64,000 bases of DNA from Sphyrna mokarran (GCA_024679065.1 JAGIQG010000116.1:1-64000), one strand, 5' to 3'. Positions 58,588 to 63,897 are shown, counted from the first letter of the stretch. Notes: generated by a model from the letters alone, not told the origin. Numbers and translations are program-made.

Positions 58588-58866
58588 GATCTTTCAGTCA
58601 GTCAGTGACACAAAACCCGGCAGAGGTGACCAAGAAGGAGTGTGAGTCTCTCACCATCACTTGTGATTTGTATGGTTCTGCTTATGCTCGCTTAGTAAAC
58701 GGCGAATTCTTCAAACAAACCCAGCCCGGGAAGGAGTGGGAGCTGATCTCCAACGGAGGGAGATTTACTGTGTCTGTGAACAAAGCAGGAAAGACATTTT
58801 CGCTGGAAATTCGGGATTTGAGAGTTGAAGACGCCGCCACCTATTACTGTAAAGCCAAGTACAAGA
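58588..58866 (+). CDS. IgNAR-like variable segment (NAR-TCR V type), unrearranged, ORF intact
   Basis: SFSQSVTQNPAEVTKKECESLTITC...ISNGGRFTVSVNKAGKTFSLEIRDLRVEDAATYYCKAKYK. The canonical Cys are 62 aa apart (no CDR2, as in VNAR). ISxGGRF FR3 motif. Extra FR1 Cys typical of NAR-TCR V. Confidence 0.9.
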
Positions 58867-58904
58867 CACAGTGATGGACCTCAGCTTCCGGCGATACAAA
58901 AACT
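58867..58904 (+). other. V recombination signal sequence (23-class, 22-bp spacer)
   Basis: CACAGTG (58867-58873), 22 nt, ACAAAAACT (58896-58904). Confidence 0.95.
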
Positions 58905-59250
58905 TTCTTTGCGGATTCTCACAGAACCAAAGGGAAAACCGGAGTTAATCTACCCTGAACCACCACCGCGCCCCCCAATCCCACTACCCGCCAATCCCTC
59001 ACACTCCTGATGCCACAGTTTATTTTTAATAAGACCTGATTATCACCGTTGCTATGTTGAGGTTTATAAATACGGAGTGTGAGTGGATGGGGCTGTCATT
59101 CCCGGGAGTGCTGTCGGTGAATTGAAAATGGAAATGACTGATCCCAGTTACAAACCCTGACACCAGATGGGATCCTCGGCTCACAGCCGGAACTGGGAGC
59201 CACTTTCCGCTCTGTTTAATTCATGTTCCAACATCCCACCCAGTCCCCGA

Positions 59251-59322
59251 GGTTTTGATGCTGAATTGTAACACTGTGTAATATTTGGGAAAGTCACTGT
59301 GGAAAGAAGCTGAACAAATACC
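59251..59322 (+). other. D segment (16 nt, 59279-59294, TAATATTTGGGAAAGT) flanked by two 12-RSSs
   Basis: GGTTTTGAT-12-CACTGTG, then D, then CACTGTG-12-ACAAATACC. Confidence 0.9.
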
Positions 59323-59634
59323 TGTGCATAATTACACTATCAATACTCAGTACCCAGAGAGTGAATCATTGGTTTGATGATATTATCGCTGTGATCGGGA
59401 TTATTTCTACTGTAATCTCCACCATTCACATCTTTCCTTGATTTTTTTGGCTATATATAAAGTGAATATTTCCTTCCTGCGGCCATTTACTGAGAGATCG
59501 GGCCTCACAAAATTACAGTTTGAACCGACAGAGACGTTAAAACCTTGAATATTATTTATTGATTTTAAATCCCCCGAATATTTGGACATTTTCGAATGAC
59601 TGGTGATGGTTTTCCGGCAGATTGAGATATTGGT

Positions 59635-59673
59635 GGTTTTTGTACCGAGGTGACTGAAGATGGAGTCACTGTG
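59635..59673 (+). other. J recombination signal sequence (23-bp spacer)
   Basis: Perfect consensus GGTTTTTGT (59635-59643), 23 nt, CACTGTG (59667-59673). Confidence 0.97.
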
Positions 59674-59731
59674 TATGATTGGAAATATTATGATGTGGAT
59701 GGATCCGGGACGGTGGTGAGGGTCACAGCCG
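59674..59731 (+). CDS. NAR-type J segment
   Basis: YDWKYYDVDGSGTVVRVTA plus 1 nt, then donor GTAAGT (phase 1). DGxGT motif as in IgNAR-type J. Confidence 0.93.
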
Positions 59732-60479
59732 GTAAGTGACTCCAATCCCGTCTTGTTACAGTCTGTCTCCTTTAATGTTCCCCTTCACTTTATCATTGTG
59801 ATCTGTATTTCAATCCCATCGGATCTTCCTGTGGAAAATCATCCGTTACAGATTAGGAGTTGGGAGCAAGGTGTGATTCTGGAACCGGCTCCAGTCAGTC
59901 CCGGGGAAAGTCTCTTTGAGAGCTGATGGAGTCGGTTGTCAGCGGGGCAGCGGTAGTGGGATGAAACTTTGGGGGGAGACTGGGGCGGGGGCGGAGGGGG
60001 TTCGGGGCGAGAGGGTGGTGGGGCGCGGGGTGCGGGTCCTGGTGTTCAGGGTTCTGAGAGAGTTGACAACATCTGGGCGAACGTTGCTTTAAGAGGCGCA
60101 TCAACATCAACCAGTCTGACACTCCTGATAGTTTTTTTTTCAACAAACTTAAATTGAGGACATTCTAGAATCCAGTCTGGTTGTAAGAAGTGAATGTAAG
60201 AGATATGTCTGCCGTTTACAGCCCCATAGCGGAGTGTCAGAGCTCTCTCCTCAGCAGTAGTTCGCAGTCCCAGCCGTGCAATGTGAATAAGCTACCGGCT
60301 GAATGAGATCGATGTCATTTAAAGGCAGCGACTCCATCATTATCTGACCCAGACTGCGAACAGAGAATTAAACAATACTTATTCTAGGTTTGAAGGAATT
60401 TTGTATTAGAGAAGTCAATGATTGGAATCAATGACATTGTATATTTTTTTAAATTTTCCTCAATATAAACAATAACTTT

Positions 60480-61500
60480 TCTTTTCATTTTCCACCGTGA
60501 GTGGTTAATTCTGGAGCATAGGTCTTCTGTACTGTTACACGCATATTTCCAGGGCCCACAGTCTTTGCAGCATCCATTGCCTTCAGCCGGTACTGAAATC
60601 ACATGGAGTGAATTCAGTTTGATGGAAACTGACATCAGTGACATTAGGGACCTCTGGAGGTGGTTGAGATGGATCATCCACTCAATACCTCAGGATGAAA
60701 ATTGTTGCCAAAGCTTAGCCTTATCTTTACTGGGTTGACAAATCACTTATAGCATTGCCTGGTGTTGCTGCTGCTGTTGCTTCCTGGAGTCTTCATTGAA
60801 CCAGTGTTAATCCCGTGTCTGCTAATGTCACTGCAGTGGATCTGCTGAGCCACAAGGTTACAGATTGGGTTTGAGTGCAATGCTGCTGCCGATGGTCCAT
60901 AATGCCTCATGGATGCCGAGTAATGAGTTGCTAGATCGGCTCAAACCCTATCCCATTTAGCACAGTGACTGTGTCAGACGACAGGATGGAGCGTAGCTCA
61001 ATGTGAAGACAGGACTTTGTGTCCACAAGAGCTGTAAATTGTCAGTCCTGCTGACACTGCTCTGGTGATGCCTCTGCGGCAATTACTTTGCTGAGGATGA
61101 GGTCAAATATGTGTTTTGCCCTCTTGGCAGTTTCCTTGCTCCCTGCCACAGTTCCAGTTTAGCAGTTATGTCGAGCTATATGCTATCGAGCCAATCGTAG
61201 TGATGAATATTCAAGCCCCCCAAACAGAGTTCATTCTGTGTTCTTGCCATCTTCACTGCTTCCTTCATTTTTTTTTGTTCAAAATAGAGGAGTTTAGATA
61301 CATCAGCAGAGCCACGTAGTAGTCAGCAGCAGTTCCCTTGTCAATGTCTGACCTGATGTCAGAAGTGTTTATGCGGTTCAGAGTCGATGTTGAGAACTCT
61401 CAGGGCAAGTGGTTCCCGACTATACCCCATTGTGCCGCCAGCTCTGCTGAGTCTGTCCTGCCAATGGGTCAGGACATACAGAAGGGCGGTGATGGTTATT
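60480..61500 (-). mobile_element. Degenerate LINE fragment (endonuclease-side region)
   Basis: Resembles a common shark LINE by recall; no intact ORF; family not firmly assigned. Confidence 0.45.
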
Positions 61501-62324: not shown

Positions 62325-62450
62325 AAAGGGTCATCTGGACTCGCGATATCAGCTCTTTTCTGTCCTTAGAGATACTATCAGACCTGCTGAGATTTTCCAG
62401 CATTTTCTCTTTTGATTTCAGATACCAGCATCTGCACTAATTTGCTTTTC
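62325..62450 (+). mobile_element. Penelope-type 3' end fragment
   Basis: aaagggtcatctggactcg...gacctgctgagattttccagcattttctcttttgatttcagat is a common shark repeat tail. Confidence 0.5.
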
Positions 62451-62584
62451 CTATCAGTTGGAACTATTGAATCAATGTATGCTTTCCTTAGGGAAGAAAC
62501 CAGCAACAATTCACTCTCTCTTCAAGGGGGGAACATGGTGGGTCTTTTTTCCCCCAGAGTTTGGAGAAACACGAGAGGATAAAG

Positions 62585-62820
62585 TTTTTTTTTAGTCACA
62601 AGTGAGGCTTACATTAACAGTGCAATGAAATTATTGTGAAATTCCCCTAGTCTGGCGCCTATTCGGATCAATGCGCTGAACTAGCAAATCTTTCAGAATG
62701 TGGAGGAATCTGGAACACCCGGAGGAAACCCGCACAAACAGGAGGAGACCTTACAAACTCCAACAGATAGTGACCCAAGCCAGAAATCGAATCAAACACT
62801 TCATTGTGGCTCTCTATCAC
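62585..62820 (-). mobile_element. V-SINE, degenerate
   Basis: agtcacaagtgaggcttacattaacagtgcaatgaa tail and cacccggaggaaaccc V-domain, both as reverse complement. Confidence 0.75.
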
Positions 62821-62934
62821 ACATTCTCTCTCATACACTTTCTCTCCTCTCCCTCTCTCTCTCTGACACACACAGACTCTCTCACAAACCTCCTCTCTAA
62901 ACCTTCAGTGAAATCATATTTTTTTCAATACTGA

Positions 62935-63345
62935 GGCTAACAGCACTGTACACAGTACTCCAGATGTGGCCTATCGAAAGCTTTGTACAGCTTTAACATA
63001 ATCCTGCTGTTTTAATATTCTTTGTTTTTGCACGACTTATAAAGACAATCGTCCCGTCTGCCCCTAGTATCATCTCCTATCGCCTTCAGGGCCTTGTGGA
63101 TGAGGAGTCAAATCTTTCTGTTCATTTGAGCTTTCCATGGCTCTGTCATTCATTAAATACTCCCTTGTCTTGTTACTCCTCCCACCGTGCATCCACTCGC
63201 ACTTTTCAGTGTTAAGTTCCATGAGCCATTGACCTGCCATCTGACCAAGCTGTCAATATTATCCGACAATCTTTGACTTCTTCCTCACTATTAGCCATTC
63301 TGTTAATCTTCGTTCCATGTGAAAGCTTACATACCCACCATCCTC
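62935..63345 (-). mobile_element. CR1 LINE ORF2 fragment abutting the destroyed leader of the second V
   Basis: Reverse complement of cagcactgtacacagtactccagatgtggcct...tttgtacagctttaacata encodes MLKLYKA..RPHLEYCVQ. Confidence 0.8.
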
Positions 63346-63389
63346 CACACACAGACATACACACAGTGCAGTGAGAGAGTGAGGAGGGA

Positions 63390-63549
63390 GTCTGTTTACC
63401 CTATGAGTACTATTCAAACTAACCCACATTCTGTGGATTGGATATAAATCTGCTCCAATTTATCCCAATTACAGACATTGTTTGGGGTTTAACTCTGTTG
63501 TGTGATTTGGCTCTGACGGCCCATTAAACTCTCTGTGTTTAATTTCCAG
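63390..63549 (+). pseudogene. Leader-exon remnant (last ~13 nt) and homologous leader intron with dead donor (GT to AT)
   Basis: gtctgtttaccct|ATGAGT versus gcctgtttacccc|GTGAGT at 58427-58445. Intron 63403-63549 is ~85% identical to 58440-58587. No homology further 5'. Confidence 0.88.
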
Positions 63550-63897
63550 AATCTTTCAGTCAGTCAGTGACACAGAGCCCAAAAGCGGTGACCAGGAAGG
63601 AGTGTCAGTCTCTCACCATCACCTGTGTTTTCAAAGCTGATTATTCTAGTTTGGAGGGCGGACATTTCTTTAGGCAAACCCAGAGCGGGAAAGAACGGGA
63701 GCGGATCTCCAGCGGAGGAAGATTTGTTGTATCGGTGAATAAAGCACAAAACACATTTTCTCTTGAAATTCAGGATGTGAGAGTTGAAGACACCGCCATC
63801 TATTACTGTAAAGCTCAGTATAAACATGGATGTGGAACTAGCGTTTCAAAAGCGGGTTATGCAGACGGACCTGGAACGGTGGTGAATGTCACAGCTG
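63550..63897 (+). CDS. Germline-joined NAR-type V(D)J exon, leaderless, ORF and splice sites intact
   Basis: tttccAG|..SFSQSVTQSPKAVTRKECQSLTITC...YYCKAQYKHGCGTSVSKAGYADGPGTVVNVTA G|GTAAGT. No RSS between V and J. About 68% aa identity (63/92, manual alignment) to the upstream V. Confidence 0.9.

Follow-up and report, generated by a model that had tools for sequence, protein, structure and literature searches.

Can a T-cell receptor (TCR) chain be built from three variable (V) domains, the middle one fixed in the germ line and tied to its neighbors by disulfides? The question is raised by a stretch of 64,000 nucleotides (nt) from the shark Sphyrna mokarran (GCA_024679065.1 JAGIQG010000116.1:1-64000), here called the window (G000:C180:1-64000 in our numbering, which continues along the same contig beyond 64000). 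Toward its end an unrearranged V gene (V1) of NAR-TCR, the doubly rearranging TCR-delta of cartilaginous fish (PMC1845163, PMC12227049, PMC6795676), is followed by a second NAR-type V exon (V2) that is already joined to its joining (J) segment. The original prediction, drawn from the window alone, took the cysteines of V1 and V2 to fit a disulfide-linked stack and called for a third, membrane-proximal V. Such a V (V3) indeed exists 3.2 kb downstream of V2, just beyond the window. The reading that we favor, and that we hold to be evenly balanced between right and wrong, is a self-contained shark NAR-TCR cluster yielding a three-V chain with V2 as a disulfide-linked fixed spacer.

Organization of the cluster

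The elements are as follows, FR and CDR denoting framework and complementarity-determining regions, D diversity and C constant segments.

58397-58439, plus strand: leader exon belonging to the rearranging NAR V, with a phase-1 GT donor at 58440
58588-58866, plus strand: V1, rearranging NAR-TCR V exon, with its FR1 (A'-B loop) Cys codon at 58641-58643
58867-58904, plus strand: V1 recombination signal with a 22-nt spacer
59251-59322, plus strand: D segment (59279-59294) flanked by two 12-nt-spacer signals, Cys-free in all frames
59635-59731, plus strand: 23-nt-spacer signal and J1 (59674-59731), phase-1 GT donor at 59732
63392-63549, plus strand: 11 nt left over from the leader of the joined exon itself, dead donor (AT, 63403-63404), and retained leader intron with a live AG end
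63550-63897, plus strand: V2, NAR V(D)J exon of 348 nt, joined in the germ line and without a leader, phase 1-1, GT donor at 63898
63603-63605 and 63831-63833, plus strand: FR1 and CDR3 Cys codons of V2, both TGT
63898-64000, plus strand: first part of the intron after V2
C180:67075-67380, plus strand: V3, supporting V that lacks a leader and has a CDR1 Cys and a 23-nt signal
C180:67771-67833, plus strand: J of the supporting V
C180:69426-73235, plus strand: C gene, with a C exon (69426-69737), a transmembrane exon (73128-73235) and also a connecting exon

The unrearranged cassette leader-V1-D-J1 (58397-59731) has its own V, D and J with signals in a 22/12-12/23 arrangement (58867-59673), and V1 combines a leader and an a-b loop Cys with lack of the WYR tryptophan. 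V3, in turn, is a supporting V that lacks a leader, bears a CDR1 Cys and rearranges to a TCR J. On these features of V1 and V3 the cluster is NAR-TCR. The third V, its J and the C gene all lie in cis with V1 and V2, and when J1, V2 and V3 are joined in silico they read in one stop-free frame with matching splice phases. The C region is 75% identical to that of a Mustelus model automatically named 'alpha-like'; the NAR-TCR context makes it a putative TCR-delta C gene. A J-delta likeness is assumed, and the strand and region names used here follow common usage. No intact D was found between the supporting V and J of this cluster, and elsewhere in the genome several 23-nt signals are stacked behind supporting V segments (L021:9381-9500, L022:3724-4400).

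V2 is a single exon in which V, junction and J share one frame between intact AG and GT boundaries. Together with its upstream intron it is 82% identical over 436 nt to V1 and the V1 leader intron; the likeness begins 11 nt before the former leader donor (AT for GT) and returns at J and the donor. From this pattern we conclude that V2 is a leaderless copy of a NAR V cassette joined at the DNA level. As both flanking introns are retained it probably did not arise by retrotransposition, and its origin appears to lie in a V(D)J join in germ-cell DNA, with duplication and loss of the leader. Both V1 and V2 have the invariant Cys18 and show FF where WY is expected, and among the PDB matches to the V2 sequence, VNAR structures figure prominently. 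At the junction the V end and J are recognizable and the signals are gone; matches to five D segments have p of 0.40-0.89, and the best match to a signal has p of about 0.09. Derivation of the CDR3 Cys from a read-through recombination signal found no significant support. An artefact of somatic rearrangement was rejected, given seven copies, two CDR3 variants and the unrearranged cassette in cis. A search for near-length homologues returned three fragments, none of them joined, and the top matches in a search of representatives included no further joined type.

Conservation and placement of the cysteines

The original prediction rested on an FR1 Cys in both V domains (KKEC in V1, RKEC in V2), one additional Cys in the CDR3 of V2 (KHGCGT) and a D segment without Cys in any forward frame. 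All of these are borne out: the codons are located as listed, and no Cys occurs in any of the six frames of 59279-59294 or in any of the five distinct D segments parsed from cassettes of this genome. The FR1 Cys, being invariant in 36/36 aligned NAR-TCR V domains, is family-wide and hence uninformative, which leaves the CDR3 Cys as the only informative one. At CDR3 position 8 a Cys is present in 7/7 genomic copies and 6/6 lamniform model domains, and in 0/66 other parsed gene models (the set comprises 81 proteins, nine of them unparsed, with apparent read-through junctions counted apart). Nineteen of these 66 have a Cys elsewhere, and in 12 of the 19 it lies in an LC motif resembling a read-through of the J signal. 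The codon is TGT or TGC in the joined exons although adjacent codons vary, and the Cys is also kept in the contig of a relative described below. Judged by these alignments, conservation of the CDR3 Cys is beyond chance.

The lamniform domains, with a CDR3 of 17-18 residues, come from Carcharodon (XP_041031384.1, with two tandem domains, XP_041031388.1 and XP_041031398.1) and Cetorhinus (P0003 [XP_078393265.1] and P0222); the lamniform and Heterodontus evidence consists of gene models rather than DNA. Tandem joined-looking domains ahead of a supporting V are found in Carcharodon XP_041031384.1 and in Heterodontus XP_067869961.1, the latter having a J, two tandem domains with identical CDR3s and the supporting V. 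The Heterodontus domain has an extra Cys in CDR1, a position so occupied in only 2/72 parsed NAR V domains. In clade tests on 36 rows picked from a set of 85, a single clade of the seven Cys-bearing domains was not rejected (p-AU 0.43), and neither was one clade with the Heterodontus domain (p-AU 0.19), so that a separate Heterodontus origin is neither demonstrated nor rejected.

In an AlphaFold2 model of V2 (pLDDT 92), read as secondary structure, Cys18 lies in the A'-B loop between strands 12-16 and 21-28, and the CDR3 Cys (Cys94) is the residue that ends strand 82-94, ahead of the turn in an extended F-G hairpin; a model of the two-domain Carcharodon protein agrees with this placement. Loop A'-B and the tip of the F-G hairpin are opposite poles of the immunoglobulin (Ig) V domain. 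With one residue at the base and the other at the tip, an intradomain Cys18-Cys94 bond is unlikely. The tip of V2 would be the face that meets the preceding domain across a short linker. A fold search retrieved generic two-V chains, with a marsupial TCR (7k0z) at rank 38, and nothing on the Cys geometry; a complex prediction for two V2 copies scored 0.00 and is evidence neither way.

Copies and splicing of the joined exon

The joined-exon unit is present on four contigs (C180, C994, C47 and C1271), which may be alleles or paralogues; over 10 kb the likeness between C180 and C47 is 99.4%. V2 has 32 genomic matches, seven of which span the whole joined domain, and all seven of these exons are 348 nt long, open, bounded by AG and GT and bear the CDR3 Cys. 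Four of them (T1-T4, with two CDR3 variants) stand in tandem at C1271:42241-50003. An assembly artefact was rejected for this array, as its copies differ by 2-7%; in T4 there is an insertion about 25 nt upstream of the acceptor. V2 differs from T1 by four synonymous and no nonsynonymous changes, and the downstream intron differs at 19/548 positions. In comparisons of V2 with T1-T4, the nonsynonymous rate (pN) is below the synonymous rate (pS) throughout (Fisher p 0.002, 0.001, 0.001 and 0.044, the pairs not being independent). The C180 and C994 units have identical V2 exons over 348 nt and the 500 nt downstream, whereas their V1 exons differ at 27 sites and by gaps, which suggests exchange of V1 by conversion among clusters.

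Evidence on splicing comes from run X1 of a relative (run X2 repeats X1 and is not independent, and the DNA-like runs X3 and X4, dominated by repeats, were left aside), which we guess to be RNA, a guess supported by one contig that skips the leader intron. Three contigs of similar depth (15-18) cover the 5' part of V2 (19 differences over 232 nt, ungapped), its 3' part and the supporting V. The contig with the junction aligns ungapped over 145 nt with 13 differences and stops at the last base of the exon; the eight differences listed all flank the Cys codon and none hits it. The supporting-V contig opens with a 29-nt loose end that is a joined-type J end. Taking X1 to be RNA, this shows the orthologous joined exon spliced to the supporting V in the relative. 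The V3-to-J junctions there contain 13 and 7 additional letters, and the chain is completed by a loose end from J to C. With respect to the two V domains of NAR-TCR, then, three V exons are in frame in the DNA, and the upstream splice partner of V2 is ambiguous in X1.

A proposed three-V chain and its alternatives

The proposed chain would form after V1-D-J1 and V3-J have rearranged, when the simplest splicing would take each exon in order and give V1-V2-V3-C. The CDR3 Cys of V2 would accept the FR1 Cys of the domain above, and the FR1 Cys of V2 itself would bond the CDR1 Cys of the supporting V3. Before V1 has rearranged, splicing of the leader to V2 could produce a fixed-tip chain of two V domains, in the manner described for a newt TRD gene, and the two forms may both be present. 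Since every joined domain contributes one base Cys and one tip Cys, all the extra cysteines would stay paired, in even number, with one copy or with four; the sister copy on C1271 is likely, by prediction from its four exons, to give up to six stacked V domains. We consider a three-V chain, including the J1-to-V2 splice that it calls for, somewhat more likely than not, and regard one with the proposed bond between V1 FR1 and V2 CDR3 as a tentative proposal of somewhat less than even weight. It is conceivable, if on the whole unlikely, that sharks possess a telescoping TCR of three to six V domains per chain, in which one to four invariant germline-joined V domains, locked by disulfides, form the stalk that carries a single diversified NAR domain. 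Its acceptor Cys would have evolved twice, in CDR3 here and in lamniforms and in CDR1 in the horn shark.

Several observations weigh against the disulfide-linked three-V stack. The main rival, which we regard as possible and rather doubtful, is that the V1 leader is spliced directly to V2, before rearrangement or with V1 skipped, to yield a NAR-TCR of two V domains whose tip is fixed and innate-like. The CDR3 Cys would in that case serve ligand binding or dimerization, and its location at the tip of an extended hairpin is as natural for binding as for linking. Three loose ends before the start of V2 in X1 have a leader-like consensus (agreement 0.71, with paralogues mixed), of which one contig, not discernible which, is probably not a leader; a J1-V2 junction is in no read or contig, X1 being uninformative here as it does not cover J1. 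Gene models from two lamniforms read leader-V2-V3, the leader standing directly on the joined domain in P0003, P0004, P0005 and P0222, and in the newt a leaderless pre-joined TRD V is expressed through a neighboring leader (PMC12698447, in the passages compared). Direct use of the leader would nevertheless leave one Cys unpaired and the four tandem copies unexplained, and the V1, D and J1 signals stay consensus-like on all four contigs; it is also compatible with a coexisting three-V chain.

It is less likely again that a three-V chain is made and the pairing is wrong, with the CDR3 Cys bonded elsewhere (to a TCR-gamma chain or a second receptor) or free. Here the original prediction held only in part: the third V and the conserved CDR3 Cys support the stack, and simple one-to-one pairing is broken in two lamniform cases. 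Lamniform P0005 has two CDR3 cysteines, and the supporting Vs of P0003 and P0222 are among the 4/76 that lack the CDR1 Cys. In Heterodontus the CDR3 Cys is absent from 2/2 domains, and yet that model has an additional top-loop Cys at the same place in the architecture; a bond elsewhere would moreover leave V1 with its invariant FR1 Cys unpaired. Improbable to a still greater degree is that V2 is a relic, a duplicated cassette with a dead leader that is skipped, so that the cluster gives an ordinary two-V NAR-TCR. Exon and intron divergence are about equal in T2-T4 (4.3/3.8, 6.6/6.5 and 7.2/7.7%), and T3 differs from T4 by 12 nonsynonymous changes and one synonymous change, an excess that may reflect diversifying selection or conversion. 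The joined exon is dispensable, as 11/11 other cassettes read from J to the supporting V without it (the remaining fetched stretches, outside this count, are broken, cut short or of another type). Against a relic stand the open frames and intact splice sites of 7/7 copies, the lack of nonsynonymous change relative to T1, the CDR3 register shared with the lamniform models and the splicing of the joined exon to the supporting V in the relative.

Relationship to known receptors and implications

The literature compared here, in titles, abstracts and passages, comprises PMC1845163, PMC5931798, PMC7615758, PMC12698447, PMC6795676, PMC3457774 and PMC12227049, and the likenesses below are to be read within that scope. 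With NAR-TCR the cluster shares a leader-bearing NAR V with an a-b loop Cys, no WYR tryptophan and its own D and J, and a leaderless supporting V with a CDR1 Cys, a TCR J and C. It differs in the extra leaderless, germline-joined NAR V (one copy or four) between J1 and the supporting V, and in having a J and C for each cassette, whereas passages of PMC1845163, PMC12227049 and PMC6795676 describe two V domains and a translocon. Table S1 of PMC12227049 gives shark gene models that may bear on the layout of the cluster. A Cys pair between the NAR V and the supporting V has been presented as a putative interdomain bridge (PMC1845163).

Marsupial TCR-mu has the layout Vmu-Dmu-Jmu-Vmuj-C (PMC7615758, PMC3457774) and shares, by analogy only, clusters with a C of their own, in which a rearranging V sits above a germline-joined V that is invariant and serves a structural purpose. 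Its joined V is described as membrane-proximal, gamma-pairing, VH-related and thought to be retrotransposed. The shark joined V, in contrast, is of NAR type, has kept both introns and takes the middle position, over a supporting V that still rearranges. The cluster is not TCR-mu, in that its joined V is not the membrane-proximal, VH-related, retrotransposed one. The TRD V-J of Pleurodeles waltl (PMC12698447) is likewise a TCR V joined in the germ line, without a leader and next to an L-V cassette; it is a single fixed V-J on a neighbor's leader, and the passages seen describe neither a NAR domain nor stacking. A 2023 paper names TCR-mu as the only germline-joined TCR V, and a 2025 paper added the newt, as far as the passages compared go. 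A three-V or germline-joined NAR-TCR was not found in the titles, abstracts and passages compared; Criscitiello 2006 and Ott 2021 lie outside this search and could mention such exons. What we describe is a real, conserved variant of NAR-TCR, for which the stack is plausible.

Certain shark Ig genes are also joined in germ-line DNA, and these are Ig genes rather than an internal TCR exon. The joined V exon adds a shark case to the germline-joined TCR V segments, and NAR-TCR converges on the cluster layout of TCR-mu. In the passages of the literature compared, TCR chains have one or two V domains. A chain of three to six V domains, if it is made, would give gamma-delta T cells a different reach and geometry in recognizing antigen and would support antibody-like binding of native antigen. 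The locus offers a direct test case for the long-proposed interdomain disulfide of NAR-TCR and supplies a module naturally suited to the stacking of single-domain binders.

Additional observations

The C exon of the window's cluster has 13 genomic matches, of which 10 lie directly behind a cassette, and on this basis these NAR-TCR genes are miniclusters. Seven NAR-TCR cassettes, each with its own J and C gene, occupy G000:C994:10.43-12.33 Mb; a further cassette at about 12.14 Mb has a J and no adjacent C match, and no V is listed for a C at 11.96 Mb. At C994 3.40-3.60 Mb (L022:508-843, L023 and L025) NAR V segments end in a 12-nt signal and are followed by J without a D, and are apparently germline V-D joined. 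At C994 6.87 Mb (L040:850-3115) several 12-nt signals and a J come after a V, an IgNAR-like arrangement. The rest of the window consists of simple repeats and LINE-like fragments with no Rfam match, and at 15-2599, 15149-18330 and 32480-38379 lie satellites of 51 nt and 35 nt together with a roughly 2.98-kb tandem duplication, in which no gene was recognized.

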